A DNA stretch of 64,000 nucleotides from Betaproteobacteria bacterium (GTDB taxonomy: Bacteria; Pseudomonadota; Gammaproteobacteria; Burkholderiales; SG8-39): positions 12,215-76,214 of the forward strand of contig CANIIA010000003.1 in the NCBI GenBank assembly GCA_947467435.1, given 5' to 3'. The translations under genes and the position numbers were made by a program. Position 1 is the stretch's first letter. Each line of letters starts with the position of its first letter. Below, one piece after another: positions 18,348 through 35,112 of this stretch. Below the pieces are notes generated by a model. The model was not told the DNA's origin, searched no databases, and worked only from the letters and a program-made list of their open reading frames with translations.

Positions 18348-19358
18348 TCAACTAGACAGCGCTTCGACCTGCACTGTCCAGGGTGGTAAGACGTCTTCAG
18401 GTTCTAAACCACGCACAATCATCACCACGCGGCTTCGCGTGGGTGGTGCAAGTTGCAACACATCAGGCGCGCCCACTAAATGTTGAATCGCATGCAGCGC
18501 CACTGCACATGGAATCTCTGTAACAGCCACAATACCTTTCACACGCAATAGGCGCGCACCGTGTTGCGTTGTTATGGCATGCAGCCAATCACCCATCGTT
18601 GTCATGGAGGTGCGCGTTTCCCAAGCCAACACAAAACTGCGCGTCTGATCATCGTGCTGCGTGCGCAAAGTCTTCGGATCAACGCGCTGACCTTGCGGCA
18701 AGTCGGGTTGCTGAAAGTGATTCACTTGCATGTGTGCGGGTTGTATCAAACGCACACACTCGGCTTGCGGATTGATTTCTGATAGCCGCGCATGCAAAGC
18801 GTCTAGGGCTACGGCCGATTGCAACGCGCATTTGTTGATGATCAATCGATCCGCGAGCAACACTTGTCGCCACTCTGTTGACTCGGATTGCAACGCCGCT
18901 TCACCAAGTAACGCATCGACCACTGTGACCACGGCATCAAGCCGGAAACGGCCCTGCAAGGCCGGCGATTCAGCAAACAGCTGTAGGATCGGCGCGGGTT
19001 CAGCAAGGCCACTGGTTTCAATCACGATGCGATTAAACGCGGGCATCTCGCCACGATGTACTGCGCGCTCAAGTTGCAAGATTGCTTGCACTAAATCGCT
19101 ACGCACCGCACAGCACACACAACCACCTGGCAGTAACACCACCTCTTCACTCGAGGATTGCACTAACACATCATCAATCCCAACTGCACCAAATTCATTG
19201 ACGATGATTGCCAAGCGTTGGTTGGGGGCAACCACTTGGCGTAACACAGCGTTTAAGAGCGTGGTCTTACCCGCACCCAAGGCCCCAGTAAGTACCGTGA
19301 CGGGGATCAGTGGTTTGATTGACTGCATGCCGTGGCTCGATGCGTCGCGCGTGATCAA
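18348..19358 (-). CDS. COG0523 / CobW-type G3E family GTPase (metallochaperone-like)
   Basis: Walker A 'GALGAGKTTLLN', metal motif 'GCVCCAV' (CxCC), 'ETSGLAEP', and a C-terminal CobW_C-like domain. Confidence 0.8.
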   Translation of the reverse strand: MITRDASSHGMQSIKPLIPVTVLTGALGAGKTTLLNAVLRQVVAPNQRLAIIVNEFGAVGIDDVLVQSSSEEVVLLPGGCVCCAVRSDLVQAILQLERAVHRGEMPAFNRIVIETSGLAEPAPILQLFAESPALQGRFRLDAVVTVVDALLGEAALQSESTEWRQVLLADRLIINKCALQSAVALDALHARLSEINPQAECVRLIQPAHMQVNHFQQPDLPQGQRVDPKTLRTQHDDQTRSFVLAWETRTSMTTMGDWLHAITTQHGARLLRVKGIVAVTEIPCAVALHAIQHLVGAPDVLQLAPPTRSRVVMIVRGLEPEDVLPPWTVQVEALSS

Positions 19359-19373
19359 CGCATCGCGTACAAA

Positions 19374-19865
19374 TTAAGTCGTTAAGCGTTTCACGATCAG
19401 CGTCAGTGCCGCACCGACGGCAGACAAGCGCACTGCATCGCGATCACCAGAAAACACATGGCGCTCAACGAGGGTGGGTTTACCGGTCGCCGCAGCAGCA
19501 ATGTAGCAAGTGCCCACTGGATTTTTTTCATTACCACCACCAGGTCCTGCGTAACCGGTCACCGCGACGCTCACGCCTGCTGTGGAATGCGCGAGTGCGC
19601 CTTCTGCGAGGCCTTGCGTGACCTCGGCACTCACCGCACCGTGGGCCTTCGAAATGTCATCTGATACACCCAAGCCGGTGGCCTTGGCGGAATCGTGATA
19701 CAGCACAAAACCACGTTCAAAAATTTTTGACGCACCCGATACGGAGGTAATGCACCCCGAAACCAATCCGGCAGTGCAAGTTTCTGCGGTCACGATACGC
19801 ACACCCGCAGCGCTCGCCGCTTGTAAAGCGCTCGACGCTTTTTGCAATAGTTCGGTTTCAAACAT
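19374..19865 (-). CDS. CinA C-terminal domain protein (PncC-like nicotinamide-nucleotide amidohydrolase family)
   Basis: 163 aa; 'TAETCTAGLV', 'GFVLYHDSAK' and 'TGYAGPGGG' are typical of stand-alone CinA-C/PncC proteins. Confidence 0.7.
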   Translation of the reverse strand: MFETELLQKASSALQAASAAGVRIVTAETCTAGLVSGCITSVSGASKIFERGFVLYHDSAKATGLGVSDDISKAHGAVSAEVTQGLAEGALAHSTAGVSVAVTGYAGPGGGNEKNPVGTCYIAAAATGKPTLVERHVFSGDRDAVRLSAVGAALTLIVKRLTT

Positions 19866-19884
19866 CGACAGTTCCTAAAATAAA

Positions 19885-21141
19885 TTACAAGGTGTTGGTG
19901 TACGCGCGACCGGCTTGCATCACCAACTTTAAGCGTTGGCGTTCTTCTAGCACACGAATATTGTCGAGTGGATCGCCATCGACCACGAGCACATCGGCAA
20001 TTTTTCCTGGTGCGATGACGCCCAAATCCTCCCGTCCAATGCATGCTGCGGCTTGCTGCGTCGCCGACACGAGCGCTTGCATTGGCGTCATGCCTAACCA
20101 ATCGACCATGAAGCGTAACTCGACTAAATTTTCACCGACCAACAGTCGATGCGATTGGTCGGTGCCAAACGCGACTTTCACCCCGCGCTTGACCGCCTCT
20201 TTCCACAACGGAATTTGTTGCTGCATGCGATCAAAAATTTCGCGCTCTTTCACGTCTTCGCTAGCTAACTGTTGTTTATCCCATGCGGTATTTTTTTTGC
20301 GATGTTCAAGTGATAACGGCACCAAGGCCAAGGTTGGCACCCACCACGTGCCGTGCTTTAGCATCAACGCGATACTTTCTTCGTCAATAAACCAGCCATG
20401 CTCAAGCGAGTGGATGTTGGCGTGTAGCGCCATGTTGATACCATCAATGCCTTCGGCATGCACCGCCACAGTTTTACGTCGAGCGCGCGCTTCGGTCACC
20501 GCCACTGCAATTTCTTCGGTTGAAAATTGCGGCTCATCCCAGGAATCAGTCACTGAGGTAATGCCTCCGGTTGCGCAGATCTTGATGAAATCTGCACCGG
20601 CCATGAGTAGATGACGCACCAGTCGACGCACTTCATCGGGACCATCGGCCACTGGGCTAGGCAACCAAGCCCGTTTTTGAATACGTAAGCCCGCAGGCAC
20701 CCACGCATCACCGTGACCACCGGTTTGCGAGACCATCGCGATGGCAATTTGCAAACGCGGCCCAGCAATCACCCCTTCTTCAATGGCGGCTCGGAATCCA
20801 GCATCGGCCCCGCCCATATCGCGCGCTGTGGTGACACCACACGCCAAGGTTTCTTCGAGCACCGTAGTAGAACGCAATACGTTATAGGTTGGCGTATTGA
20901 GTAAATGTTGTCGCATATCACGTGCACGATAGGTGCCGTGCACGTGACAATCAATCATGCCTGGCAGCACCGTGCGGCCGGCGGCATCGAGAACGTTGGC
21001 GCCCTTGGGTACGCTGACGTTGCTCCCAACAGCGCTGATACGCTCGCCTTCGATTAATACCGTCGTGTTACGTTGCGGGTCACGGCCACTGCCATCAATA
21101 AGTGTCGCGCCTGTAATTGCCACTACGTTGGCCGTTGTCAC
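19885..21141 (-). CDS. metal-dependent amidohydrolase (COG1228-like, imidazolonepropionase-related)
   Basis: 'ITGATLIDGSG', 'LPGMIDCHVHG' (HxH) and downstream His/Asp ligand blocks ('VAVHAEG', 'FGTDQ'). The start is refined to GTG 21141, directly after the upstream stop. The ORF-track N-terminal extension overlaps the ALDH gene. Confidence 0.75.
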   Translation of the reverse strand: MTTANVVAITGATLIDGSGRDPQRNTTVLIEGERISAVGSNVSVPKGANVLDAAGRTVLPGMIDCHVHGTYRARDMRQHLLNTPTYNVLRSTTVLEETLACGVTTARDMGGADAGFRAAIEEGVIAGPRLQIAIAMVSQTGGHGDAWVPAGLRIQKRAWLPSPVADGPDEVRRLVRHLLMAGADFIKICATGGITSVTDSWDEPQFSTEEIAVAVTEARARRKTVAVHAEGIDGINMALHANIHSLEHGWFIDEESIALMLKHGTWWVPTLALVPLSLEHRKKNTAWDKQQLASEDVKEREIFDRMQQQIPLWKEAVKRGVKVAFGTDQSHRLLVGENLVELRFMVDWLGMTPMQALVSATQQAAACIGREDLGVIAPGKIADVLVVDGDPLDNIRVLEERQRLKLVMQAGRAYTNTL

Positions 21142-21142
21142 G

Positions 21143-22612
21143 TTAATTCTCCAAATCCACAAAGACGTTTTTAATTTCGGTGTAAAGAGCCAACGCGTGT
21201 AAGCCCAATTCACGACCCAAGCCCGAGCGTTTATACCCACCAAAGGGCGCAAGATAACCATAGCGGCTCGCACTGCCGTGTGAGTTAATGCTGATCATGC
21301 CGCTTTTCAAAGCACGCGCCACACGCAAGCCACGTGCAATATCTCGCGTCCACACCGAACCGTTCAAGCCATATATATTGTCATTGGCCATCGCCACGAC
21401 GTCACTTTCTGTCTCAAAAGCGATCACCACCACCACGGGACCAAATATTTCTTCTTGTGCAACACGCATGTCGTTGCGCGCATTGGCAAGAATGGTCGGG
21501 GCGTAAAACGCAGCGCCATCCAATCCCTTCGGGCGCGCACCGCCAATCGCCAAGGTACATCCCTCGGCTAGACCCAATTGCACATAACCATGCACACTGT
21601 CCCACTGCGATTGCGAAATCAATGGACCAATCTCGGTGCTGGCTTGCAGCGGATCACCTAACTTTACTTCTTTGGTTGCCGCAACAAAGCGCGCTAAAAA
21701 TTGATCGTAAACCGAGCGTTCAACAAATACACGCGTGCGTGCTGAGCAACTTTGTCCGGCGTTCCCAAATCCGGCTTTGACCGCTTGCACTGCGGCTTTT
21801 TCTAAATCGGCATCAGCAAAAATAATATTCGGGCTTTTACCGCCGAGCTCGAGGGTGATGCGCTTAATGTCATCGGCCCCCAGCTTTAGTAAGGTGGCGC
21901 CCGTTTTTGTTTCGCCAGTGAAGGTGATTTTGTCGATGCCTGGATGCGTCGCGATACGCTCACCTAAGGTGGCGCCCGGCCCCGGCAAAATATTCAGTAC
22001 ACCCGCGGGGACACCTGCATCGATCACGATTTGCCCCAGGGCCAAGGCAGTGAGTGGTGAGTAACTGGCCGGTTTTAAAATCATGGTGCAGCCGGCTGCC
22101 AGTGCAGGCGCCACTTTCCATGCCGCAGCCATGAATGGAAAATTCCAAGGCGTGATCGCTGCAATCACGCCAATCGGTTCGCGTAACGTAAAGTCAAGTA
22201 CAGCATCACCCATGGGGATGGTGTCGCCGTAAAACTTATCCATCGCCCCGGCGTAGTAATCAAACACATTGGCTGCAGCATCGACTTCATTTAAGGCATT
22301 GCCAATCGTTTTACCGCTATTTCGGGTTTCAAGTTCGGCGATTGCGCGTGATTGATCGCGAATCCGTTGCGCGATCTCGCGCAAAAAACGACCGCGTTGT
22401 GTGGGTTGCATGCCGGACCAACGTCCATCCTCAAACGCGCGACGCGCAGCAACGACTGCTCGATCTAAATCTTGTAAGCCAGCTTTTGCCACTTCTGCAA
22501 GGGGCTGCAAGTTGCAGGCGCTATAGGTGGTGAAGGTTTGCCCTGATTGCGCAGGAACAAATTGTCCATCAATGAGTAATTCAGTGCGAAGTAGATTCAT
22601 AAAAATAGGCAC
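21143..22612 (-). CDS. NAD(P)-dependent aldehyde dehydrogenase
   Basis: 'ELGGKSP' and the catalytic Cys block 'FGNAGQSCSA'; 'EEIFGPV'. The start is either GTG 22612 or ATG 22600. Confidence 0.85.
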   Translation of the reverse strand: MPIFMNLLRTELLIDGQFVPAQSGQTFTTYSACNLQPLAEVAKAGLQDLDRAVVAARRAFEDGRWSGMQPTQRGRFLREIAQRIRDQSRAIAELETRNSGKTIGNALNEVDAAANVFDYYAGAMDKFYGDTIPMGDAVLDFTLREPIGVIAAITPWNFPFMAAAWKVAPALAAGCTMILKPASYSPLTALALGQIVIDAGVPAGVLNILPGPGATLGERIATHPGIDKITFTGETKTGATLLKLGADDIKRITLELGGKSPNIIFADADLEKAAVQAVKAGFGNAGQSCSARTRVFVERSVYDQFLARFVAATKEVKLGDPLQASTEIGPLISQSQWDSVHGYVQLGLAEGCTLAIGGARPKGLDGAAFYAPTILANARNDMRVAQEEIFGPVVVVIAFETESDVVAMANDNIYGLNGSVWTRDIARGLRVARALKSGMISINSHGSASRYGYLAPFGGYKRSGLGRELGLHALALYTEIKNVFVDLEN

Positions 22613-22627
22613 AGACCGAAGAGCGAA

Positions 22628-23380
22628 TCATGAAAATAAACGCGCGCAGTGCGCAGGAAGTTCTGCCAACGTGCGTAGGTGCACATCCACCTCAGCCGGA
22701 ACATTTTGCGCAGTCGGTGCGAGCCACGCCGTATGCAAACCGAGCGCTTTACCACCACGCACATCATTATTGAAATCATCGCCCACATACAGGGTGCGCG
22801 AGGGCACAGCTTGCATCGCGGCGAGGGCTGGCGCAAAACATTCTCCGTGGGGCTTCATCCATCCGGTTTCGGACGACACCACAACCACCTCAAAGTATTG
22901 CAGCAAAGCAAAACGCGCCAGCGTCGCGCTCACCACCGGACCATGCGGGTAGTTCGAGACCACCCCCAATCGATAGTGCTGCGCCAACTGCGGAATGACT
23001 TCTGCGCTGTCAGCAAGCAGTCGGGCTTCACGCGTGACTTCCTCACCCAATGCATCGGCCAATGCATCGAGAAATTCGCGCGGAGGCACACTGACTTGCG
23101 CCATCGAAAATGCCATCGCGAAGCGATCGGCAAAGCTGTGTTCGCGCTGCGATTGTTTGGATTGTCGAATCTGCGCCGCGCACGCGGCTAAGTAATGCGG
23201 CCGAAATTGCGCAAACGGTAACGTGACGTTTGCCTCGCGCAGCGCTTGCATCATCGACCCGTCATACACGCGTGCAAGACACGCCACATGGGCATCGGGA
23301 TCATGAACCATCCCAGGAATCCACATCAGCGTTTCGCCCCAGTCAAACAACACCACTGGACGCGTTGCGCTGTGGGTCAT
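22628..23380 (-). CDS. HAD superfamily hydrolase (subfamily IA-like) with atypical motif I
   Basis: Motif I is 'VLFDWGETL' and motif IV is 'YVGDDFNNDVRG'. The Asp+2 of the DxDxT phosphatase motif is replaced (D-W-G-E-T). Confidence 0.7.
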   Translation of the reverse strand: MTHSATRPVVLFDWGETLMWIPGMVHDPDAHVACLARVYDGSMMQALREANVTLPFAQFRPHYLAACAAQIRQSKQSQREHSFADRFAMAFSMAQVSVPPREFLDALADALGEEVTREARLLADSAEVIPQLAQHYRLGVVSNYPHGPVVSATLARFALLQYFEVVVVSSETGWMKPHGECFAPALAAMQAVPSRTLYVGDDFNNDVRGGKALGLHTAWLAPTAQNVPAEVDVHLRTLAELPAHCARLFS

Positions 23381-23382: not shown

Positions 23383-24114
23383 TCAGGCCGCCGCCAGCGC
23401 TTGGTCTGCAAGCGCCATTGCTGCCGCACGTGGATCAGGTGCGTCATACACCGCACGCCCAACCACACCAATCACGCTACAACCCGGGGCGGCCTTGACT
23501 AACTCATCTAATTTGCCGCCCAGCGGACCAATGCCAGGCACCACAAAGACGGTGTCTTTGCCGCGCGCGTTCATTTCTGCGCTGATCCAGTGTGCGTGAT
23601 AGCGCAATTTATCGGTGGTGTTTCCGGGAACAATAAAGTGTGCACAACCGACTTCGAGGGAGGTTTTAAAAATCCGCTCGAGCGCATCATCCGCAATATA
23701 ACCACCGCCACTCACGTTGTAATCAGGAAACGGCAAATCACCACCGACAATCGGCAGCATGCCGTGTTTGATGGTTTCGCCAACAAACCCCTGCACAGCG
23801 CGGGTCCCTGCCGTCGGAAATAAGATCAAGCCATCGACCTTTGCTTCGGCGCATAACTTGGCAAACTTCGCGGCCATATCAAACACATCAGGGCCGGCTT
23901 TTTGGTGGTCATACAGCAACGGCAAATCGGTATGGGCGCGCATCTGTCGGACTGTTTCTGCCAAGCCTAGACGCAACACCGTGGTCATCCCCAACTTGTA
24001 ACCCACCACGCCCTGCACGGGCGTGGTCAGATCGATGGTGCGTTTGCACGCATCAACGGTCTCGGCATCCAGCGCCACAATCAAACCGTGCCGCGCACGA
24101 AACTGCACGGTCAT
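23383..24114 (-). CDS. orotidine 5'-phosphate decarboxylase-like (OMPDC/KGPDC superfamily) protein
   Basis: 'LIVALDAE' start of the barrel, 'GYKLG', 'LLYDHQKAGPDV', and a C-terminal phosphate-loop-like 'VVGRAVYDAPDP'. The start is refined to MTVQFRA (24114), 1 nt after the upstream stop. Confidence 0.6.
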   Translation of the reverse strand: MTVQFRARHGLIVALDAETVDACKRTIDLTTPVQGVVGYKLGMTTVLRLGLAETVRQMRAHTDLPLLYDHQKAGPDVFDMAAKFAKLCAEAKVDGLILFPTAGTRAVQGFVGETIKHGMLPIVGGDLPFPDYNVSGGGYIADDALERIFKTSLEVGCAHFIVPGNTTDKLRYHAHWISAEMNARGKDTVFVVPGIGPLGGKLDELVKAAPGCSVIGVVGRAVYDAPDPRAAAMALADQALAAA

Positions 24115-24115: not shown

Positions 24116-25006
24116 TCAACCGCCGCTTTGCAAACGGCCAATCGTGCGCAACGCGCTGGGCTTGATATCTTTCACATCCAAACTGATATCCACCGCACGC
24201 ACCGAGTGCGTGAGATCGCCCACTGAAATCACATCGACGCCGGTCTCAGCGATTTCTACAATGGTCGACTCATTGACGCCCCCCGAGGCCTCAGTAATCG
24301 CACGGCGATTCACCAGCTTTAAACCTGCGCGCATTTCATCGAGATCCATGTTGTCGAACATAATCACCTCCACCCCACAATCCAGCGCTTCTTGCACCAT
24401 CTCTAGGGTTTCGCATTCGACTTCAAACTTAAACGTGTGCTGTGCACGTGCACGCAATATTTCGACCGCTTTGGTGATGCTGCCTGCTAACTTGATGTGA
24501 TTGTCTTTCACCAACACGCAATTGGTGAGATTAAAAATATGGTTGTGCGCCCCACCCACACGCACCGCATATTTCTGCACCATGCGTAGACCTGGCCATC
24601 CTTTGCGCGTATCTGTCACACGTACATTGGTGTGCTTCACCAAGTCCAAATAGCGACGGGTTTTGGTGGCGATACCGGACAGTTGCTGAACCCAATCGAG
24701 CGCTGCACGTTCAATACAAAAAAAGGTTGAGGCCTTGGCGCGAATCTTTAACAACACCGTGCCGGGCTGAATCGGATCGCCTTCACGCACACCGTAGTCG
24801 ACACTGGCTTCGGGCTCGACGAGCTTGATGGTCTCTTCAGCAAACATCAGTCCGCACGCCACACCCACGCCTTTGGCGTAAATCTGTCCGGTCAGTACAG
24901 GATCGTCTTGCCACACCAAAAAACCACCAGTGGTATCACCGGCATTGAGTTCTTCACGTAAGCCAGCTTCTACGAGGGGGCGAATCATAAAACGGTTCAA
25001 ATGCAT
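24116..25006 (-). CDS. type II phosphoribosyltransferase, nicotinate-nucleotide pyrophosphorylase (NadC/QAPRTase)-like
   Basis: Collinear with NadC: 'ERAALDW', 'TDTRKGWPGLR', 'KYAVRVGGAHNHIFNL', 'LVKDNHI', 'MFDNM', 'EASGGV', 'ISVGDLTHS'. The conserved N-H-R reads N-H-I. Confidence 0.75.
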   Translation of the reverse strand: MHLNRFMIRPLVEAGLREELNAGDTTGGFLVWQDDPVLTGQIYAKGVGVACGLMFAEETIKLVEPEASVDYGVREGDPIQPGTVLLKIRAKASTFFCIERAALDWVQQLSGIATKTRRYLDLVKHTNVRVTDTRKGWPGLRMVQKYAVRVGGAHNHIFNLTNCVLVKDNHIKLAGSITKAVEILRARAQHTFKFEVECETLEMVQEALDCGVEVIMFDNMDLDEMRAGLKLVNRRAITEASGGVNESTIVEIAETGVDVISVGDLTHSVRAVDISLDVKDIKPSALRTIGRLQSGG

Positions 25007-25183: not shown

Positions 25184-25828
25184 TTAAAATGCATCGGCCT
25201 GCGTCGAGGGTTCGACTGAGCGAACTGCCGGCAGCGCAGCCCCCGCTTCAAAAACGCGCATCACCGTCGGGTAAGCCGACAAATCACAATCAAAACGCTG
25301 CGCGTTAAATACTTGCGGAATCAGGCACACATCCGCCATCGTGAACTGATCGCCCAAGCAATACCGGCCCACGCGCTGTTGTGACAGCAAAAATGCTTCA
25401 AGACTTTTCATGCCCTCAGCAATCCAATGCGGATACCACTGACGGTTGACGCCAGCATCATCCATACCGCAATGCGCTTTTAAATACTTCAATACCCGCA
25501 CGTTATTCAAGGGATGAATTTCGCAGCCAATAATTTGCGAGACTGCGCGTACATACCATTTCTCTTCAGCCCCCTTAGGCATCAGCGCGGGTTCTGGGTG
25601 CACGTCATCCAAATACTCAATCATCGCCATCGATTGCGTAAATACACGCCCCGCTTCATCGATCAGAGCAGGCACCAAGCCTTGCGGATTTTTTGCAAGG
25701 TACGTCGGATCGTGATGTGCCATTTTGGGCAAGCTCACGTATTTAGGCGTCCAAGCCAGACCCTTATAGGCAAGCGCAATACGCAAGCGAAACGAGGTCG
25801 ATGAACGAAAAAAGGTATAGAGCTCCAC
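25184..25828 (-). CDS. maiA: maleylacetoacetate/maleylpyruvate isomerase (glutathione S-transferase zeta class)
   Basis: Zeta-class signature 'RSSTSFRLRIAL' and 'NPQGLVPAL'. Confidence 0.75.
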   Translation of the reverse strand: MELYTFFRSSTSFRLRIALAYKGLAWTPKYVSLPKMAHHDPTYLAKNPQGLVPALIDEAGRVFTQSMAMIEYLDDVHPEPALMPKGAEEKWYVRAVSQIIGCEIHPLNNVRVLKYLKAHCGMDDAGVNRQWYPHWIAEGMKSLEAFLLSQQRVGRYCLGDQFTMADVCLIPQVFNAQRFDCDLSAYPTVMRVFEAGAALPAVRSVEPSTQADAF

Positions 25829-26221: not shown

Positions 26222-27433
26222 TTAAAACCAGCTCTTGATGGTGCTCACCATCCAGCGCCAAAACACACCTGCTGCATCCATGGGACTCATCGGCGCAGCA
26301 CCCGCCGGTGCGGCGACAGCTTCGCCCGGTGCTCCGCTTGCGCTTGATCCGGCACCTAAGCGTGCGTTGAGATTGGCGGCAAAATCAGCCACCATTTTTT
26401 TCACGAACTCCTTCACTAATCCACCGCGTGAAAATTGCGCTAACGGACCTTGCAAACTGTATTCAATGGCAACTGCAACCCGTGTGCGACCATTGCCTGC
26501 ATCAGAGAGGGCGTACGTAATGTCGCCACGTGCGCGCGAATTCGATAACGAATCAGTGCCTGCACCACGTATGGAACCAGCATGGGTCGCTGCATTGCGC
26601 TCTAACGCAGCAGAGCCCACAAAGGCCGCGCGCATCGGACCAAACTTGGTGCTGATCTTGCCTTTAATACTGGTGGGCGTGTGTTCGGTAATTTCGGCAC
26701 CGGGCAAACAGGCCGCGACTTTAGGCATGTCTGCAAACGCTTCCCACACCACATCGATCGGATGATCCACCTCAAACGCGTCTTCGATGCGTGTACCTGG
26801 CTTTTTATTTGCAGTGTCGCTTGGTGTTGCCGCAGCGGCTGTCGGTGAAGCCGTAGCGGGTGCAACGGAGGCTGCAGCGGATGCTTGATTTGCAACCGCT
26901 TGAAACGACGGCAGCGGTGCACGCGCGGCCGTCGCGACAGGCTCGACGCGATCGGCATTGGCTGCGCGTCGCGATTCGATCACCGAGACAATCGCGTTGA
27001 TGATGCCTTGATAACCAGTGCAACGACACAAATTACCTGACATCTGTACGCGCACTTCGTGGGCGTCTGCTGTTGGACAACGCAACACGACATCGCGCGC
27101 GCTAATCAACATGCCGGGTGTACAAAAGCCACACTGCAAGGCATGAAAGCGACTAAACGCAGTTCGCAGTTGCGCCATCACCTCGTCTTCTTCAAAGCCC
27201 TCGATGGTGCGTACTTGCTGACCATCACAGGCCACTGCATACGCAATACAAGCACGAGAGGGCACCCCCTCAATAAGTACCGTACATGCACCGCACACAC
27301 CGTGTTCGCAACCCAAGTGCGTACCGGTGAGTCGCTGGTTATCGCGTAAAAAATCGCCTAAATGGGTGCGTGGTTCGACCAAGGCTTGAATTTTTTCGCC
27401 ATTGATGGTCATGTTGATTGCTTGCATAGACAT
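26222..27433 (-). CDS. molybdenum hydroxylase [2Fe-2S] small subunit (CoxS-like) fused to a CoxG/SRPBCC domain
   Basis: N-terminal 'CEHGVCGACTV', 'CGFCTPG' and 'CRCTGY'. An Ala/Pro/Thr linker follows. The C-terminal part, 'FEVDHPIDVVWEAFADMPKVAACLPGAEI...', resembles carbon monoxide dehydrogenase subunit G. Confidence 0.8.
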   Translation of the reverse strand: MSMQAINMTINGEKIQALVEPRTHLGDFLRDNQRLTGTHLGCEHGVCGACTVLIEGVPSRACIAYAVACDGQQVRTIEGFEEDEVMAQLRTAFSRFHALQCGFCTPGMLISARDVVLRCPTADAHEVRVQMSGNLCRCTGYQGIINAIVSVIESRRAANADRVEPVATAARAPLPSFQAVANQASAAASVAPATASPTAAAATPSDTANKKPGTRIEDAFEVDHPIDVVWEAFADMPKVAACLPGAEITEHTPTSIKGKISTKFGPMRAAFVGSAALERNAATHAGSIRGAGTDSLSNSRARGDITYALSDAGNGRTRVAVAIEYSLQGPLAQFSRGGLVKEFVKKMVADFAANLNARLGAGSSASGAPGEAVAAPAGAAPMSPMDAAGVFWRWMVSTIKSWF

Positions 27434-28282: not shown

Positions 28283-30661
28283 TTAAGCCGCTTCGCGTTT
28301 AGGTAAGGTGCCGCTACGTGCGCGTTCGATCGCCTCGAGCAAACGATGCGGCGTGAGCGGTGTGCGATTGACTTCGACACCCGTGCTACGCAGCGCATCG
28401 TTGACCGCATTAAAAATAGCTGCCGGTGGCGCAATCGCACCGCCTTCGCCCATGCCCTTGATGCCAAATTCAGTGTAAGGCGAGGGCGTTTCCATATGGA
28501 AAATTCGCATATGAGGCACTTCGGTAGGACCAGGCAAGGTGTAATCAGCGAGTGTGGAGGCATTCGGCTGACCGTTCACGTCGTACTCGATTTCTTCGTA
28601 CATCGCCGTGCCAATACCTTGTGCGATTCCTCCAATGGTCTGACCTTCGACCACCATCGGATTCACCACCGTGCCGCAGTCTTCAACGATCACATAATCC
28701 AAAATCTCGACCTGCCCGGTGTCTGTATCGACGGCCACAGCCACTGCATGTGAAGCGTAGCTAAACGCACCACTATCGCGTTCGGGTTTGTAGCTCACGC
28801 TACATTCCAATCCGCGACGATCAACATCCAACGGCGCTTTATCTGGTCGCAGATACCAAGCTTCGCAAATCGACTTCAAGCTCATTTGTTTGCCATCGGG
28901 CGCAATCACACCCACACCTTTTTCAAAGCGCGCTTCGCTTTCTTTACAACCCAGCAAATGCGCACCGATCTTCACGATACGCGGCACTAACTCGCGGCAC
29001 GCGTTGGCTGTTGCACCACCGGCCATCACGATCGAACGAGACGCATACGTCCCTGTGGAATACGGCGTGGTTCCAGTGTCGCCGTGTGTGACATGAATGC
29101 GCGACACATCGATACCTAAGATTTCGTGGGCCATTTGCGCAAGCGTGGTCTCCATGCCTTGACCATGCGAATGGATACCCACACGCACTTCCAATCCACC
29201 ATCCGGTGTCATCTTCACTGCGGCCTGATCAAACCCTGGTACCAGTGGTAACCCCCATGACGCAAACACGGAGGTGCCGTGCGCGGATTGTTCGCAATAA
29301 CTCGCAAAGCCGATCCCAATCTTGCGGCCATCGGCCTCACCTTTTTCTTGACGTGCACGCCAGGCCTCAATGCCTAATTTTTCGCGCGCCGTGGTCAGTG
29401 CCTGAGGGTAATCACCGCTGTCATAGTGTTTTTTCATGACATTGTCATAGGGCATTTGCTCTGGACGTACTAAATTGTCCATGCGCACATCGTACGGATC
29501 GCGATCGACCGCGCGCGCAATACCTTCCATCAACAACTCCATCGCAAAACACACGCCGGTCCGCGCGACACCGCGATAAGGCATAAAGCCTGGCTTGTTG
29601 GTGGCGACACAACGCGTGGTGCAACGGTAGCCACGAAAATCGTAAGGCCCCGGTAAATTGCCAATCGCTTGACCGGGTTCTAACCCAATCGTGAACGGCC
29701 AATTGGAATAAGCACCACCATCGATCGTGATTTCTGCATCTAATGCAAGTAAGCGACCTTTGTCGTCCGCGTAACCGGTGAGTTGATATTTATGTTGACG
29801 TGCATTGGCCCCAGAGACCAGGTGCTCGCGACGATCTTCAATCCAACGAAATGGTTTACGGAATTTCCACGCTAGCCACGCCACTGACAGCTCTTCTGGA
29901 TGCACGATGACTTTATACCCAAAACCGCCCCCCACATCGGGCGCAATAATTCTGACTTGGCCTTCACTTAATCCGAGAAACTGCGCAATACCCGTACGCA
30001 CCACGTGCGGTGTTTGCGTGGAGTAGTACATGACCAATTGATCGGTGCGCTCATCCCAGTGCGCCACCACCGCTTTGCCTTCCATCGGGACCATCGCTTG
30101 GCGCGAGAGCTCGACTTCGCGCTTGACCACGACCGTGGCTTGTTTGGATAAGCGATCAAAGTCGTTATCCACCGACAACGTCACAAAGACGTTGTCTTCC
30201 CATTCTTCGTGCACGCGCACGTTTTTTTCGCGTAAGGCTGCCATCGATTCAACTAACGGTGGCAGCTCTTCAATATCTAACACAATGCGTTCAGCCAAGT
30301 CTTCTGCTTCGGCGCGCGTTTTAGCCACGCACATCGCCATCGCTTCGCCCACAAAACGCACCTTACCTTCGGCTAAAGGCGGTTGCGCAGACACGCGATA
30401 GCTCGGAATCGATGAGGTCGAAATAATCGACTTTGCCTCTGGCATATCCGCACGCACAAACACTGCGCCCTCAGAACCAGCTGGTTTTTGAATGGCACGA
30501 ATCCGTCCATGCGCAATCGGGCTGCGCAAGAATGCAACCTCGAGTTGCCCAGGAATCACCATATCGGAAACGTACTGACCTCGACCATGCAAATGGCGTG
30601 AGTCTTCTTTGCGCTTGACGCGTGCGCCGATGCCCTGACCGGGCTTGCCGTGCTCTTCCAT
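28283..30661 (-). CDS. xanthine dehydrogenase family molybdopterin-binding large subunit (CoxL-like)
   Basis: 'RVKRKEDSRHLHGRGQYVSD' N-terminus, 'GGGFG' and a C-terminal 'GMGEGG' block. The start is refined to MEEHG (30661), preceded by GGAGGGG. Confidence 0.88.
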   Translation of the reverse strand: MEEHGKPGQGIGARVKRKEDSRHLHGRGQYVSDMVIPGQLEVAFLRSPIAHGRIRAIQKPAGSEGAVFVRADMPEAKSIISTSSIPSYRVSAQPPLAEGKVRFVGEAMAMCVAKTRAEAEDLAERIVLDIEELPPLVESMAALREKNVRVHEEWEDNVFVTLSVDNDFDRLSKQATVVVKREVELSRQAMVPMEGKAVVAHWDERTDQLVMYYSTQTPHVVRTGIAQFLGLSEGQVRIIAPDVGGGFGYKVIVHPEELSVAWLAWKFRKPFRWIEDRREHLVSGANARQHKYQLTGYADDKGRLLALDAEITIDGGAYSNWPFTIGLEPGQAIGNLPGPYDFRGYRCTTRCVATNKPGFMPYRGVARTGVCFAMELLMEGIARAVDRDPYDVRMDNLVRPEQMPYDNVMKKHYDSGDYPQALTTAREKLGIEAWRARQEKGEADGRKIGIGFASYCEQSAHGTSVFASWGLPLVPGFDQAAVKMTPDGGLEVRVGIHSHGQGMETTLAQMAHEILGIDVSRIHVTHGDTGTTPYSTGTYASRSIVMAGGATANACRELVPRIVKIGAHLLGCKESEARFEKGVGVIAPDGKQMSLKSICEAWYLRPDKAPLDVDRRGLECSVSYKPERDSGAFSYASHAVAVAVDTDTGQVEILDYVIVEDCGTVVNPMVVEGQTIGGIAQGIGTAMYEEIEYDVNGQPNASTLADYTLPGPTEVPHMRIFHMETPSPYTEFGIKGMGEGGAIAPPAAIFNAVNDALRSTGVEVNRTPLTPHRLLEAIERARSGTLPKREAA

Positions 30662-30680
30662 CACCCCTCCAATTGCCGCG

Positions 30681-30704
30681 CCGAACAGCCCGCAGGCTGT
30701 TCGG
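30681..30704 (-). other. perfect 10-bp stem / 4-nt loop hairpin in the dctP-to-coxL intercistronic spacer
   Basis: ccgaacagcc-cgca-ggctgttcgg read directly. It lies about 20 nt upstream of the large-subunit start, with no U-tract. Confidence 0.8.
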
Positions 30705-30815
30705 TCTTCGGTACAACAAGTCACGCCGATTCAGTCGGGCCAAAGCGCCGACGGCGCATCAGCGTGACTCAAACAACATCAAACTCATGTGCTGCATGTC
30801 ACGACTGCGCGCGAC

Positions 30816-31907
30816 TTATTTCTTCCCTGCGGCCACTGAGAAACGGTAGCTATCGAGGTTGTATTCAGCCACACGGAACCACAAGTTTTGATCGTCGCGG
30901 AACTTTGACCACTGCTCGTAGATTTTCTTGAACTCTGGGCTCTTGGCCGACAGTTCTGACATGACCTCTTGCGTCGTCTTGTAAGCGGCGTCCATCACTG
31001 GCTTAGGGAAAGCGCGCAACTGCGTGCCTGAGCCCACCAGCTTTTTCAATGCCACCGGATTTTTTGCGTCGTAATCGGCGGTCATCATGGTGTCTTGTTC
31101 ACGCGCGGCGCAAATCAAGGCCTCTTGGAACTGTTTGGGCAACGCCTCCCAAGCTTTTAAGCTCACCAACATGGTGTTCTGGGCGCTGCCTTCCCACCAA
31201 CCTGGGTAGTAATAAAACTTGGCCACTTTGTTCAAGCCGAGCTTTTCATCGTCATGCGGTCCGATAAATTCGGCGGCATCGATGGTGCCTTTTTCGAGCG
31301 ATGCATAGATATCACCCGGTGGTAATTGTTGCGGCGTGACGCCCAAGCGCGAAAGAATCGTGCCGCCAATGCCACCAATGCGCATCTTCAGACCCTTGAG
31401 ATCGGCCACGCTCTTAATTTCTTTGCGATACCAACCGCCCATTTGCACGCCGGTGTTACCGCAAGGAATGTTCATCATGCCGTATTGCTTGAACACATCG
31501 CGCAGCAACTCAGCGCCACCGCCCCAGTTAAACCAGGCGGCTTGTTGACGTGCATTCAAACCAAACGGAATGCCAGCATCAAATGCAAAGGCGGGGTTCT
31601 TGCCAATAAAAAAGCTCGACAAGGTGTGTGCGGCTTCCATGGTGCCTTTTTCGACGGCATCAAACACTTGGTTGCCCGGCACGATTTCGCCAGCAGCCAA
31701 CACGCGAATTTCAAACTTACCATCGGTCATGGCCAGAATGCGTTTGGCCATTAACTCCACGCCACCGTGGGTGGTGTCTAAGCTTTTTGGCCAGCTGGTT
31801 TGCAAGCGCCATTTCACCGTGGGGGTGGACTGTGCAATCGCTGGTGCGGCAATAGCACCGAGGGCAGCACCGGCGCCTGCTTTGGTCAGAAACTCGCGTC
31901 TCTTCAT
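30816..31907 (-). CDS. TRAP transporter substrate-binding protein (DctP-type, COG4663-like) with Tat-type signal
   Basis: 'MKRREFLTKAGAGAALGAIAAPAIAQS' fits the twin-arginine motif RRxFLK, followed by a DctP-type fold. Confidence 0.85.
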   Translation of the reverse strand: MKRREFLTKAGAGAALGAIAAPAIAQSTPTVKWRLQTSWPKSLDTTHGGVELMAKRILAMTDGKFEIRVLAAGEIVPGNQVFDAVEKGTMEAAHTLSSFFIGKNPAFAFDAGIPFGLNARQQAAWFNWGGGAELLRDVFKQYGMMNIPCGNTGVQMGGWYRKEIKSVADLKGLKMRIGGIGGTILSRLGVTPQQLPPGDIYASLEKGTIDAAEFIGPHDDEKLGLNKVAKFYYYPGWWEGSAQNTMLVSLKAWEALPKQFQEALICAAREQDTMMTADYDAKNPVALKKLVGSGTQLRAFPKPVMDAAYKTTQEVMSELSAKSPEFKKIYEQWSKFRDDQNLWFRVAEYNLDSYRFSVAAGKK

Positions 31908-32092
31908 GCTTTACTCCTTGGAATAACCGGCGATGCCGGTGGTTATAAAAAACAACAACAAAACCTTCGATCACAACAAGACGTTCAGCCGCTACAAGAC
32001 ATCGCATCACGTCTAACAGCTAAATATTTTCTACAATCCAACCGTCACGTAGCAAGCCACGGTCACAAAAAAATCTTGCGCAACAACCTCGC

Positions 32093-33577
32093 CTACTTAG
32101 TCGCTTTACTCGCGCGCTCGAGTTGTTTTTGCAAATCGTTGTCCGATTCGCTGGGTCCGACAGGTTGCTCTGGTGTGTCTGATGAATCGGGCATGACCTC
32201 AGGTGCCTCGAGCTCGATCTTAACCTTGTCCACGTCAATCACCTGCTCTTTATCCAAGAACGCAGTGATTTGATCCGGGAAAATAATCACCAAAGCCACC
32301 ATCAATAATTGCAAGCCAACCCACGGAATCGCCCCAAGATAAATATCTTTGCTCTTCACTTCGCGCGGTGCGATACCCCGCAGATAAAACAAGGCATAAC
32401 CAAACGGGGGATGCATGTACGAGGTCTGCAAATTCACGCATAGCAGCACGCCAAACCAGACCAAATCAACGCCGAGTTTTTGCGCCACCGGCGCAAGTAA
32501 GGGCACAACGATAAAAGCGATCTCAAAGAAATCTAAAAAGAACGCCAGCACAAATACAAAGAGCATCACCACGACCAAAAAGCCGGTGCGCCCACCAGGT
32601 AAATCAGACAGCAAATGCTCAATCCACAGTCCGCCATCAAAGCCCTGAAACACCAGCGAAAACACGCTTGAGCCAATCAAGATAAAGATCACCATGGCGG
32701 TAATGCGCATGGTCGACTCCATGCCTTCCCAGACGAGCTTGCGCGTTAAGCGGCCACGCAACGCGGCCAGAATCATTGCACCAACCGCACCCATGGCACC
32801 CGATTCGGTGGGTGTGGCTAAGCCCATAAAAATGGTGCCCAACACCAAAAAGATTAAGCCCAACGAAGGAACCACACCCCACAGCACACGGGACCACAGC
32901 GCCCAGCCACGCAAGGTGCGCGCTTCGGGCGGCAAGGCCGGCACGAGGTTCGGGCGGAAAATAGCAACGATGGCGATAAAACCAATAAACAACAACGTTT
33001 GCACAATCGATGGGCCAATCGCACCAGCGTACATATCACCGACTGAACGACCCAACTGGTCCGCTAACACCACCAGCACCAATGAGGGTGGAATCAACTG
33101 CGTAATGGTGCCCGATGCAGCGATCACGCCAGTGGCGATGCGCATGTCATAGCCATAACGCATCATGGCTGGCAACGCGATCATGCCCATCGCAATCACT
33201 GAGGCAGCCACCGTTCCAGTAATGGCGCCCAAAATAGCCCCCACCACAATCACTGAATACGCCAAGCCACCTGGTAGTGCACCAAACGCTTGCCCCATAC
33301 TCTCGAGCAGATCTTCAGCTAAACCGCAACGCTCGAGAATGCATCCCATAAACGTAAAAAACGGGATCGCCAACAACAAATCATTCGATACGATGCCAAA
33401 CACACGCAAGGGCAAGTTGGCTAAAAAGTCGGGCACAAAAAAACCAAGCTCCACGCCCAAAATACCAAACGATAAGCCCAACGCGGCGAGTGAAAACGCC
33501 ACCGGAAAACCCACCAGTAAAAATAAGATCATCCCCGCAAACATCAACGGGGCCATGGATTCAGCACTGAGCATCAT
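32093..33577 (-). CDS. TRAP transporter large permease (DctM-type)
   Basis: 494-aa polytopic protein with DctM-like blocks ('AIPFFTFMG', 'GTITQLIPPS'). It overlaps dctQ by 4 nt. Confidence 0.85.
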   Translation of the reverse strand: MMLSAESMAPLMFAGMILFLLVGFPVAFSLAALGLSFGILGVELGFFVPDFLANLPLRVFGIVSNDLLLAIPFFTFMGCILERCGLAEDLLESMGQAFGALPGGLAYSVIVVGAILGAITGTVAASVIAMGMIALPAMMRYGYDMRIATGVIAASGTITQLIPPSLVLVVLADQLGRSVGDMYAGAIGPSIVQTLLFIGFIAIVAIFRPNLVPALPPEARTLRGWALWSRVLWGVVPSLGLIFLVLGTIFMGLATPTESGAMGAVGAMILAALRGRLTRKLVWEGMESTMRITAMVIFILIGSSVFSLVFQGFDGGLWIEHLLSDLPGGRTGFLVVVMLFVFVLAFFLDFFEIAFIVVPLLAPVAQKLGVDLVWFGVLLCVNLQTSYMHPPFGYALFYLRGIAPREVKSKDIYLGAIPWVGLQLLMVALVIIFPDQITAFLDKEQVIDVDKVKIELEAPEVMPDSSDTPEQPVGPSESDNDLQKQLERASKATK

Positions 33578-34113
33578 TGCAGCGGCCTTTCATAGTGCAG
33601 ATCGGCCGTCAGGTGGCCCGTCAACATGGCAATACGTTTGATGAGTTCGGACAAGCCTTGCAAGGTCATCAATGCAAAACCAATCGGTAAAGCAAGACGC
33701 GCAGGCCAACGCAACAAACCACCCGCATTCGGCGAAATTTCACCCGTGCGCATCGCATCCAGCGCCGGTGGCCAGCACAACATCAATAAATAAATCATCG
33801 CTGGTAATAAAAACACCGACAAACCGAACAGATCCACCCAAATCCGACCGCGTGTGCTCAACGAACCGTAGATCAAATCAACGCGCACGTGTTCATTCAC
33901 CTTCAGCACATGGGCTGCACCGAGCATGACCAAGTAGGCAAACAAATACCATTGCATTTCCAGCCAAGCATTCGAGCCCAAGCTAAAGGTGTAGCGCAAT
34001 CCGGCGTTGCCGGCACTCACCAAACAAGCAATCAATACACAGGCTGAAGCGATGTAGCCAAACCAGCGACTCAGGTGATCGACCGCATCTGCGGCCTTTA
34101 AAAATGCATGCAT
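33574..34113 (-). CDS. TRAP transporter small permease (DctQ-type)
   Basis: 179 aa with 4 TM helices, immediately upstream of and overlapping the DctM gene. Confidence 0.8.
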   Translation of the reverse strand: MHAFLKAADAVDHLSRWFGYIASACVLIACLVSAGNAGLRYTFSLGSNAWLEMQWYLFAYLVMLGAAHVLKVNEHVRVDLIYGSLSTRGRIWVDLFGLSVFLLPAMIYLLMLCWPPALDAMRTGEISPNAGGLLRWPARLALPIGFALMTLQGLSELIKRIAMLTGHLTADLHYERPLQ

Positions 34114-34116
34114 AAA

Positions 34117-35112
34117 TCAGCTCGCTTTTTGGTCACGGGTGACGTTGTATTTATAGTCACGGAATTCACCAGAACGTACTGGTGCATAACGCGGCGACTC
34201 GCCAGGACGCAAACAACTTGGAATGCATTCCACCAGCGCGTCGTAATTGGGATGCTGAAAAAAACCAATCGAGATACGGCTCGTGCTGCGCGCGATTTCT
34301 CGCGGTGGATTAAGCACACGATGCACATTCGACACCCAGAGGTCATTCGTCCAGCGCATGAGCAGATCACCGATGTTGCACACAAACCGATGCGGATCGG
34401 TCGGCACATCGACCCAAGCTCCAGCACGTGTACGCACTTGCAGACCACCCGGTGCATTTTCACCAGACAAAATTGTCAACATGCCAAAGTCGGTGTGCGC
34501 ACCGGCGCGCAGTTGACCTTCTTCGGGCGGATTGTCTTGCCTCGGGTAATAGTTGATGCGCGTCGCCGTGATGTGACGATCAATTTTATTTTGGAAAAAG
34601 AATTCGTCTAAGTCCAGTGCCAGCGCCGCGATACGACACAAATCGGCGGCGAGCCGTTCCATCGCTTGGTAATACGCATCTGCTGCAATGGCAAACCCAG
34701 CCGGTTCGTTGGGCCAGATGTTGCGATGAAAATATTGTTGGCCTTCGGCACTCGTGTAATACGCATCATTGGTGGGCCAGTCCGCACGACCGAAGTGGTA
34801 ATACTCTTTAAGATCGGTCGGGGTGGCACTGTCATTGCCAAACGACAAGGCCTCAAAGCCCACCGCCTTCCAACCACGTGGATACGTTGCAGTGGGCGGC
34901 GCGACCAACGATTTTTGTGCTTCGGTTTGCGAAAAAAACAAACGTGCTTGGGCATACAGCTCGTCAATGATTTCTGGCGCAACGCCATGACCGGTCACGG
35001 CAAAAAATCCGATTTCTTCGGCAGCGCTACGCAATGCACGCACCACGGTATCACGCCCCGCAGGATCTCCGGCAAGGAATGGGGCAATATCAATAATCGG
35101 TGCGCGGTCCAT
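34117..35112 (-). CDS. 2-oxoglutarate/Fe(II)-dependent oxygenase (isopenicillin N synthase family)
   Basis: N-terminal 'IIDIAPF...EIGFFAVTGHGV', the HxD...H facial triad ('AHTDFG', 'SNVHRV') and 'RISIGFF'. Confidence 0.8.
   Translation of the reverse strand: MDRAPIIDIAPFLAGDPAGRDTVVRALRSAAEEIGFFAVTGHGVAPEIIDELYAQARLFFSQTEAQKSLVAPPTATYPRGWKAVGFEALSFGNDSATPTDLKEYYHFGRADWPTNDAYYTSAEGQQYFHRNIWPNEPAGFAIAADAYYQAMERLAADLCRIAALALDLDEFFFQNKIDRHITATRINYYPRQDNPPEEGQLRAGAHTDFGMLTILSGENAPGGLQVRTRAGAWVDVPTDPHRFVCNIGDLLMRWTNDLWVSNVHRVLNPPREIARSTSRISIGFFQHPNYDALVECIPSCLRPGESPRYAPVRSGEFRDYKYNVTRDQKAS

Follow-up and report, generated by a model that had tools for sequence, protein, structure and literature searches.

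The stretch of DNA analysed here (the window) comprises 64,000 nt of contig CANIIA010000003.1 from assembly GCA_947467435.1, a 2.68-Mb, 94% complete genome of a Betaproteobacteria bacterium (SG8-39). Between about 17.3 and 41.6 kb it holds a composite array made of two units, separable but often fused. Unit 1 is homologous to the upper half of the picolinate (pic) catabolic cluster. Unit 2, also called the module below, contains a NadC-like type II phosphoribosyltransferase, a protein with the fold of orotidine 5′-monophosphate decarboxylase (OMPDC-like), a HAD hydrolase, an aldehyde dehydrogenase (ALDH), an amidohydrolase, a CinA-domain hydrolase and a COG0523 GTPase. Our tentative reading is that the whole forms a composite island for the catabolism of picolinate, or else of a very close pyridine-2-carboxylate, where unit 2 would act on the product of unit 1.

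Gene families were assigned by Pfam and NCBIfam scans of the open reading frames (ORFs) of the window (Table 1). A preliminary description had reported a run of sixteen genes on the minus strand between 35112 and 18348; every one is present at its position in the ORF list, and the scans agree with the families named. Exactly three long spacers, of 185, 154 and 177 nt, separate these genes, while the remaining junctions overlap or span at most 19 nt. The flanks are also as described, with a short-chain dehydrogenase (SDR) gene on the plus strand, an amidase-signature (AS) amidase gene on the minus strand, a plus-strand MarR gene and a minus-strand four-component Rieske oxygenase. The delimitation of the array had to be revised. 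The array is not a single "supraoperon", as its two units are separable and each is found without the other in further genomes, and the functional unit is wider than proposed, reaching from the LysR gene at 17352 to the Rieske oxygenase at about 41610. The regulators of the units differ, MarR lying beside unit 1 and LysR beside unit 2. A promoter/terminator scan found 5 promoter-like sites against 12.4 expected; since these are fewer than in shuffled sequences, the scan is uninformative on transcription units. That the array is more than chance follows instead from the synteny kept in locus L099, described below, and strand statistics are not the basis of this statement. Housekeeping genes fill the window past about 42.5 kb and before 17.3 kb. 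Two TctC (Bug-family) binding-protein genes, which are typical of Burkholderiales genomes, lie in this housekeeping flank at 6386–7444 and 13456–14523.

As a reference for unit 1, a canonical pic cluster was taken from genome G121, which was found by searching genomes of the same order. Its first block consists of DctQM, the small (S), medium (M) and large (L) subunits of a Mo hydroxylase and DctP, divergent from the ferredoxin, the reductase and the alpha and beta subunits of a Rieske oxygenase. Genes for an isochorismatase (PicF), a NicX-type dioxygenase (PicD), an alpha/beta hydrolase (PicE), an Amdase-fold protein (PicG), an Amidohydro_2 protein (PicC) and a MarR regulator (PicR) come next. 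PicD, a 2,5-dihydroxypyridine dioxygenase of the NicX type with 425 bits to PDB 7CN3, occurs in G121 in two identical copies. The layout agrees with the organisation PicT-A-B-F-D-E-G-C-R known from Alcaligenes faecalis JQ135 and Bordetella bronchiseptica RB50 (10.1101/530550; PMC10142695). In B. bronchiseptica RB50, picGEDF is likewise present in two copies, and bb0268–bb0283 have been assigned to the pic cluster (PMC10142695).

The window shares with this cluster a TRAP binding protein beside a three-subunit Mo hydroxylase whose small subunit is of the [2Fe-2S]+SRPBCC/CoxG type, a four-component Rieske monooxygenase and a MarR regulator. Identity to the G121 counterparts amounts to 59–68% for DctP, the Mo large subunit and the Rieske alpha and beta subunits, and to 37–50% for the other components (Table 1). 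Pfam architecture and these identities place the Mo enzyme with the three-component PicA hydroxylase, which carries molybdopterin cytosine dinucleotide (MCD) together with FAD and 2×[2Fe-2S]. The picA1A2A3 genes have been expressed in Pseudomonas putida KT2440. Judged by sequence, the Rieske system corresponds to the four-component PicB, a monooxygenase of 6-hydroxypicolinate, and its top PDB match is the salicylate 5-hydroxylase NagG. Both a PicR-type MarR gene and a TRAP binding-protein gene (picT) are present. The earlier reading of the region is partly supported: an N-heteroaromatic acid catabolic island and the N-heterocycle type of the Mo hydroxylase agree with the analysis. At the same time, the statement that the gene set matches no nameable pathway no longer applies to the upper half, whose TRAP, Mo hydroxylase, Rieske oxygenase and MarR genes are homologues of picT, picA, picB and picR (37–68% identity over the upper genes). 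None of the lower genes picCDEFG is present in the window.

Orthologues of the large subunit are named "carbon-monoxide dehydrogenase large subunit" in public sources, and the top NCBIfam match is CO dehydrogenase (CODH) group 5. Were these names right, the enzyme would belong to the dehydrogenases for CO, aldehydes or other non-heterocyclic substrates, and no link of the array to N-heteroaromatic acids would remain. However, the large subunit scores below the CODH cut-offs, with 580 bits against 950 for group 5, its best match, and 449 against 991, and the copper-binding loop of CODH (VAYRCSFR), sought in this subunit, is absent. In the PDB search, quinoline 2-oxidoreductase was the closest solved relative with 503 bits, compared with at most 416 bits for CO dehydrogenases. 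Furthermore, the large subunit is 65% identical to the hydroxylase inside the canonical pic cluster. A dehydrogenase of the CO or aldehyde type is thus highly unlikely. The preliminary description had named a grouping with such enzymes as a result that would overturn its assignment; by structure-relative scores and motif, the enzyme sits with the N-heterocycle hydroxylases.

The binding protein DctP points in the same direction. It is 60% identical (495 bits) to the protein of PDB 4YIC/4YZZ, which in turn is 87.6% identical to the binding protein of the G121 pic cluster. We take 4YIC to be BB0280 crystallised with picolinic acid, although a literature look-up gave no confirmation of the ligand or the locus tag.

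Homologues of PicC, a decarboxylase of 3,6-dihydroxypicolinate, and of PicD, PicE, PicF and PicG, which make up the 2,5-dihydroxypyridine lower pathway, were sought in the window and none was found; the lack of a NicX-type dioxygenase and a deformylase there, already noted in the preliminary description, was thereby confirmed. In the rest of the genome, the best matches to PicC are only 29–31% identical and lie on other contigs. Contig C90 encodes NicX/PicD-like (41%), PicE-like (51%) and PicF-like (36%) proteins. These genes, at 3681–8967 of that contig and thus outside the window, are accompanied by a 412-aa FAD monooxygenase and by two subunits, [2Fe-2S] and FAD, from a further Mo hydroxylase, with the contig end truncating the cluster. 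This looks like a separate nic-type cluster. A dipicolinate (dip) cluster was also considered for the window and rejected: its published description gives GntR regulation and 13 genes in mixed orientation, and makes no mention of phosphoribosyl chemistry.

In place of PicCDEFG, the window has proteins of three families (ABM fold, GST-zeta isomerase and AS amidase), together with the LysR-linked nucleotide module. The AlphaFold model of the ABM-fold protein (pLDDT 78.8) matched ABM, LsrG and SnoaB proteins in Foldseek. The GST-zeta protein passes the cut-off of TIGR01262 (maiA) with 240.8 bits against 171. GST-zeta enzymes act on cis-4-oxo-2-enoates such as maleylpyruvate, and the presence of this gene suggests that a cis-4-oxo-2-enoate intermediate occurs somewhere in the pathway. 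The AS amidase similarly suggests an amide or imide intermediate.

Within unit 2, the NadC-like protein scores 285.8 bits against TIGR00078 (cut-off 198.4) and 199 bits against the Thermus NadC (PDB 1X1O), with about 45% identity by eye from the alignment. In about 70 members of its subfamily, the motif NHR is changed to NHI and TRKTTPG to TRKGWPG. The three housekeeping NadC copies compared, from genomes G001, G003 and G004, keep the canonical motifs; G001 and G003 carry the module too. In quinolinate phosphoribosyltransferase, the Arg of NHR helps to bind a carboxylate of quinolinate. The genome of the window has no match to NadA and no match to TIGR00078 besides the module copy, and G002 and G005 likewise have no nadC apart from the module gene.

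This situation raises the possibility of NAD-related salvage or repair, whereby the NadC-like protein and the PncC-like deamidase would make nicotinate mononucleotide (NaMN) from an alternative pyridine dicarboxylate or from damaged (pyridone) nicotinamide nucleotides, or would dispose of such nucleotides, and the module would supply NAD in a genome without the aspartate route. The scores are in line with such a role, as the NadC-like protein is above the nadC cut-off and the CinA protein above that of the PncC domain. Nevertheless, we consider it improbable. The exchange of Arg for Ile in NHR runs through the whole subfamily, while the housekeeping copies in G001 and G003 keep Arg, and neither the ALDH nor the metal amidohydrolase has a role in NAD synthesis. 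In addition, the links to uptake systems, to Mo hydroxylases and, in Firmicutes, to a phosphoribosyl pyrophosphate (PRPP) synthase and a nucleoside hydrolase suggest a stoichiometric flux, and a distribution as patchy as three of 301 sampled genomes of the order is unlike that of a housekeeping function. Since the active site is altered, the lack of NadA and of another nadC is better explained by dependence of the organism on NAD salvage, which is probable, than by a housekeeping role for the NadC-like protein. Identity with the housekeeping NadC itself was rejected on the strength of the conserved Arg-to-Ile exchange and of the second, canonical copies in G001 and G003.

The OMPDC-like protein also belongs to a divergent subfamily. 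Its model (pLDDT 86.7), a TIM barrel, is closest to true OMPDC structures (TM 0.79/0.87), and the top 50 Foldseek matches are all OMPDC structures, with TM values of 0.73–0.80 on the query. The motifs YDHQKAGxD, GGxLPFxDY, PGIGxLGG and VGRAxY are invariant among its homologues; of these, the phosphate-gripper motifs PGIGxLGG, which is the 5′-phosphate loop, and VGRAxY, with the phosphate-binding Arg, are retained from OMPDC. With 30.4 bits against 92.3 for TIGR01740, the protein remains below the pyrF cut-off, and a normal pyrF is found elsewhere in the genome, on contig C16. Motif I of the HAD protein reads D-W-G-[E/D]-T in 31 members instead of DxDxT, and motifs II–IV are present. The CinA protein exceeds the domain cut-off of TIGR00199 but not that of the equivalog NF002975 (131.8 bits against 212), and the motif TAE-T-CT is conserved across its family; the corresponding PncC motif is TAESCT, with a catalytic Ser. 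The amidohydrolase keeps the metal ligands HxH, K, H, H and D in 56 family members, and its closest NCBIfam families are Xaa-Pro dipeptidase and HutI. The divergent LysR protein is the probable regulator of the module.

A scan of species-representative genomes with the OMPDC-like protein gave 502 confirmed matches, in Beta-, Alpha- and Gammaproteobacteria, Acidobacteriota, Rubrobacteraceae, Mycobacterium, Bacillus methanolicus, Aneurinibacillus, Alicyclobacillus and one cyanobacterium. A plasmid collection searched with the same protein gave no match. Among the 301 genomes sampled from the order, three hold the module and four the ABM protein. Gene content was counted in 84 module loci by ORF clustering with a GC3 filter, in which families f27 and f38 were ignored as residual antisense artefacts. 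The NadC-like gene occurs in 70 of the 84 loci and its product is 63–89% identical to the window protein, save in two loci at 49%. The amidohydrolase was found in 55 loci, the ALDH in 51, CinA in at least 29 and the COG0523 protein in 23, alphaproteobacterial and mycobacterial ones included. The HAD protein is the least conserved member and frequently missing. Among the loci examined, Tistlia consotensis USBA 355 was the sole named proteobacterial isolate, and no isolate with the fused island was found. In 15 betaproteobacterial loci, a LysR gene whose product is 65–72% identical occupies the equivalent position next to the COG0523 gene.

More distant lineages hold informative variants. The locus of Aneurinibacillus danicus (L085, 8397–14206) encodes a nicotinate phosphoribosyltransferase (NAPRTase), the OMPDC-like protein, a HisI-like phosphoribosyl-AMP cyclohydrolase (PRA-CH), a PRPP synthase, an IU nucleoside hydrolase and a Cof-type HAD protein. 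In Mycobacterium (L086, 9109–13512), NadC-like, OMPDC-like and PRA-CH genes are found with an MFS transporter and CobW. Rubrobacteraceae have an amidohydrolase, the NadC-like and OMPDC-like proteins, PRA-CH and an ALDH, and the cyanobacterium combines a NAMPT-like gene with OMPDC-like and CinA genes. Comparison of these variants therefore reveals an invariant core: a phosphoribosyltransferase of type II and the OMPDC-like protein, joined by CinA or, alternatively, a HisI-like hydrolase.

Counted from gene maps, at least 25 of the 84 module loci have an adjoining Mo hydroxylase, which is of one of three kinds: PicA-like, distant xanthine dehydrogenase (XDH)-type, and IorAB-type accompanied by SoxYZ-like and SoxA-like proteins. 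An example of the last kind is located at 4250–8908 of L001, where an IorAB-type enzyme (728-aa MoCo and 149-aa 2Fe-2S subunits) stands with genes for SoxY-like, SoxZ-like and SoxA/TsdA-type cytochrome c proteins. This block recurs in L006, L007, L011, L014, L021, L022 and L027, and many betaproteobacterial loci have it oriented divergently to the NadC-like gene. The IorAB-type enzyme may be an alternative hydroxylase feeding the module. Family f32, of about 500 aa and with the look by eye of a UbiD-family, prenylated-FMN (prFMN) decarboxylase, is found near the module in L035, L038, L048, L065, L066 and L079; it may trim a pyridine dicarboxylate to the substrate of the module. In L026 (7257–8969) and at the same position in L028, a protein of 558–570 aa, Amidohydro_3 (YtcJ-like) by eye, is encoded directly upstream of the NadC-like gene, with no Mo hydroxylase nearby.

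The two units are fused in L099, a lineage whose Mo subunit is only 72% identical to that of the window. All genes share a strand there and, where checked, overlap or are at most 26 nt apart. The order is ferredoxin, reductase, Rieske alpha and beta, (MarR), amidase, Mo hydroxylase L, M and S, ABM and GST, and after a gap of 26 nt it continues with NadC-like, OMPDC-like, HAD, ALDH, amidohydrolase, CinA, COG0523 and DctQ. Comparable fusions are seen in L025, L029 and L032. L025 is similar to the window. In L029 and L032, DctP, the Mo hydroxylase L, M and S subunits and DctQM are divergent from an operon that is headed by ABM and runs from the NadC-like gene through to COG0523, while GST, the Rieske oxygenase and the amidase are not in view. 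DctQMP genes encoding proteins 77–87% identical to those of the window lie directly upstream of the NadC-like gene in L030, and TRAP orthologues of 84–87% identity abut the module in L030, L042 and L044. In all genomes seen with both units, the units are within 25 kb of each other.

The GST-zeta gene follows the ABM gene in L098, L099, L001 and genome G015. In L099, the amidase gene extends into the start of the Mo large-subunit gene, and in G015 it is located upstream of DctP. L098 has an SDR gene at the equivalent position and a 2-oxoglutarate (2OG)/Fe(II) oxygenase gene upstream of DctQMP; no such oxygenase gene is present in the 84 module loci. Unit 1 of L098 contains the Rieske oxygenase, MarR, SDR, the 2OG oxygenase, TRAP, DUF1989, the Mo hydroxylase L, M and S subunits, ABM and GST. 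In this locus, which belongs to a close relative, dihydroorotate-dehydrogenase-like and TctC genes (1096–3143) lie between the Rieske alpha and beta genes, and the DUF1989 gene (9144–9968) between the DctP and Mo large-subunit genes.

Table 1. Genes of the composite region in the window, with the basis of each assignment and the identity to the counterpart in the canonical pic cluster of G121.
Feature	Position	Strand	Basis or remark	Identity to G121
LysR-type regulator	17352–18302	+	Pfam HTH_1 + LysR_substrate; divergent from module	
COG0523 (CobW/ZigA-like) GTPase metallochaperone	18348–19358	-	Pfam cobW + CobW_C; start codon uncertain	
CinA/PncC-domain hydrolase (NMN-deamidase-like)	19374–19865	-	TIGR00199, 127 bits vs 68.9 cut-off	
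Amidohydro_1 metal hydrolase (COG1228-like; HutI/Xaa-Pro dipeptidase relatives)	19885–~21150	-	Pfam, NCBIfam	
NAD(P)-dependent ALDH	21143–22612	-	Pfam Aldedh, E = 7e-168	
HAD-IA hydrolase, atypical motif I	22628–23380	-	Pfam HAD_2	
OMPDC-fold protein, divergent subfamily	23383–24114	-	Pfam OMPdecase, E = 1e-12	
NadC-like type II phosphoribosyltransferase, distinct subfamily	24116–25006	-	TIGR00078	
GST-zeta, maleylacetoacetate/maleylpyruvate-type isomerase	25184–25828	-	TIGR01262	
ABM-fold (dimeric alpha+beta barrel) protein, 122 aa	25836–26204	-	weak Pfam ABM, E = 0.007; model + Foldseek	
Mo hydroxylase [2Fe-2S]+CoxG subunit	26222–27433	-	Pfam	50%
Mo hydroxylase FAD subunit	27451–~28280	-	Pfam	45%
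Mo hydroxylase large subunit (PicA1-like)	28283–30661	-	Pfam	65%
DctP, TRAP binding protein	30816–31907	-	Pfam; N-terminus MKRREFL..., Tat-type signal	59%
DctM	32093–33577	-	Pfam	47%
DctQ	33574–34113	-	Pfam	43%
2OG/Fe(II)-oxygenase superfamily protein	34117–35112	-	Pfam DIOX_N + 2OG-FeII_Oxy	
SDR	35268–36047	+	Pfam adh_short	
AS family amidase	36056–37552	-	Pfam Amidase	
MarR regulator, PicR-like	37531–38067	+	Pfam MarR	50%
Rieske oxygenase beta	38055–38564	-	Pfam	59%
Rieske oxygenase alpha (PicB alpha-like)	38567–39865	-	Pfam	68%
Rieske oxygenase reductase	39881–41140	-	Pfam	37%
Rieske ferredoxin	41146–41610	-	Pfam	48%

Building on the homology, gene content, synteny and distribution presented above, we infer a substrate, an order of steps, the reactions of unit 2 and the handover from unit 1 to unit 2 as follows. 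The Tat-exported DctP and DctQM would import picolinate or a close 2-carboxylate. The PicA-like Mo hydroxylase would then hydroxylate C6, beside the ring nitrogen, to give a 6-hydroxy (2-pyridone) acid, and the PicB-like Rieske monooxygenase would introduce a second hydroxyl at C3, yielding an "aza-gentisate" of the 3,6-dihydroxypicolinate type. The ABM protein, the GST-zeta cis-trans isomerase and the AS amidase may occupy the place of PicCDEFG. A hydroxylated pyridine-2-carboxylate is a deaza analogue of orotate, and the NadC-like protein is predicted to transfer 5-phosphoribose to its ring (lactam) nitrogen. The OMPDC-like protein could then remove the carboxylate adjacent to the ribosylated nitrogen and so functionally replace PicC. 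CinA (a HisI-like protein in the variants), the amidohydrolase or both would open the resulting pyridone ribonucleotide by hydrolysis, much as enamidase or HisI do. The ALDH would oxidise the aldehyde set free on ring opening, the HAD protein (plus the nucleoside hydrolase in some lineages) may recycle the ribose phosphate, and the COG0523 protein presumably metallates the hydrolase.

Several observations weigh against this proposal. For unit 2, PRPP-dependent decarboxylation is energetically costly compared with PicC. Neither the OMPDC-like protein, with an invariant YDHQKAGxD where OMPDC has DxKxxD, nor the HAD protein, which lacks the Asp+2 general acid, is a textbook enzyme. For the substrate, TRAP binding proteins of the TakP-like family are numerous, with paralogues of 52–66% identity frequent within the order, so that DctP by itself cannot settle the ligand. 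A NicX-like 2,5-dihydroxypyridine cluster also exists elsewhere in the same genome, on contig C90. As for the union of the two units, unit 1 and the module are about 25 kb apart in L098, and six unrelated opposite-strand genes lie between the units in L001, six opposite-strand genes being seen also in L027. Outside Betaproteobacteria, unit 2 mostly occurs without PicA- or PicB-like genes, and most of the 84 loci have the module without a pic-like unit. Conversely, the 12.6-kb contig C29 of G015 (81% complete) carries GST, ABM, Rieske alpha and beta, MarR, amidase, DctP and the Mo hydroxylase L, M and S subunits, with no module, PicC or PicD found in the genome. Similarly, G117 (97% complete) has ABM, MarR, DctP and Mo hydroxylase L and M, with no module or PicC found in the genome. 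Since unit 1 stands without unit 2 in these two genomes, it may be a complete pathway alone.

These observations could mean that two independent pathways are merely adjacent. Unit 1, with TRAP, the PicA- and PicB-like enzymes, ABM, GST-zeta, the AS amidase, SDR and the 2OG oxygenase, would by itself make up a full "aza-gentisate" route for picolinate, in which the ABM or 2OG-type oxygenase cleaves dihydroxypicolinate to a maleyl-type amide or imide, GST-zeta isomerises this product and the amidase hydrolyses it. The module would serve a different N-heteroaromatic acid under LysR and would be adjacent only through accretion of catabolic islands. Besides G015, G117 and the distance in L098, the different regulators of the units and the pairing of the module with IorAB-type Mo hydroxylases in many loci are consistent with this explanation, and oxidative cleavage of an aza-gentisate would give a cis-4-oxo-2-enoate, the substrate type of GST-zeta. 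In contrast, the tight, co-directional fusion in L099, the ABM gene at the head of the module operon in L029 and L032, the TRAP orthologues directly on the module in L030, L042 and L044 and the spacing of at most 25 kb wherever both units occur argue for a functional link. Moreover, no pyridine-ring cleavage by an ABM or 2OG oxygenase is known to us. Two adjacent pathways are accordingly a real but somewhat doubtful possibility, and we continue to favour, tentatively, a composite island in which unit 2 acts on the product of unit 1.

Picolinate and its pyridine-carboxylate relatives occur widely as natural products of tryptophan and lysine metabolism, spores and plant material; for picolinate, just one complete aerobic route, PicABCDEFG, is known in genetic terms. 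As the island shows, the upper pic enzymes are retained, without the known lower pathway, in many uncultured Burkholderiales of freshwater and groundwater. In the searchable literature, we found no description of the module, nor of the set of ABM, GST and amidase. The upper pathway of the window is a variant of the known pic system, and there is a substantial chance that the module represents a new catabolic logic. The specific strategy suggested here, with PRPP as an activating handle, O2-free decarboxylation and hydrolytic ring opening at the nucleotide level, is still rather unlikely in this exact form. It would provide an oxygenase-free lower pathway for picolinate-type acids, spread over Proteobacteria, Acidobacteriota, Actinobacteria, Firmicutes and Cyanobacteria. 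If true, the NadC, OMP decarboxylase and CinA families would gain new functions, and annotations as nadC, pyrF and CO dehydrogenase would have to be corrected for such genes.

In comparison with the pic cluster, the window lacks PicC–PicG and has instead ABM, GST-zeta, the AS amidase, SDR, the 2OG oxygenase and the nucleotide module. With the gentisate pathway, it shares a GST-zeta protein above the maiA cut-off and a NagG-like hydroxylase, which would make a para-dihydroxy acid. Unlike that pathway, the window has no cupin gentisate dioxygenase or fumarylpyruvate hydrolase, its ring would contain nitrogen, and an AS amidase is present instead.

Unit 2 can be compared with PyrE/PyrF, which take orotate to UMP in pyrimidine synthesis, and with the quinolinate phosphoribosyltransferase NadC; the shared logic is to ribosylate a ring nitrogen and then remove the adjacent carboxylate. 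As in these systems, a phosphoribosyltransferase gene is followed by an OMPDC-fold gene, and the NadC fold, most of its active-site motifs and the phosphate-binding motifs of OMPDC are retained. However, the transferase is of type II (NadC-like) and not PyrE, and has Ile for Arg in NHR. The OMPDC-like protein differs from PyrF by DHQKAGxD in place of DxKxxD, by a score of 30 bits against a cut-off of 92, by the normal pyrF elsewhere in the genome and by its catabolic context. In contrast to NadC, which works with NadA/NadB in de novo NAD synthesis, the NadC-like protein has no NadA partner in its own genome and is likewise encoded in a catabolic gene context.

For the subsequent ring opening, HisI (the cyclohydrolase PRA-CH) of histidine synthesis and the yeast URC uracil pathway provide parallels, in that a heterocycle is N-phosphoribosylated and then opened hydrolytically. 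If the proposal holds, the module would represent a new logic of ring activation, parallel to these two. The Firmicute, mycobacterial and Rubrobacteraceae modules hold a HisI-like PRA-CH where the proteobacterial ones hold CinA; the substrate would presumably be a pyridone instead of a purine or pyrimidine, and ring opening by the module is a prediction. The enamidase of nicotinate fermentation in Eubacterium barkeri, a member of the amidohydrolase superfamily, opens a cyclic enamide and frees an aldehyde. Such chemistry would explain the conserved pair of amidohydrolase and ALDH in the module.

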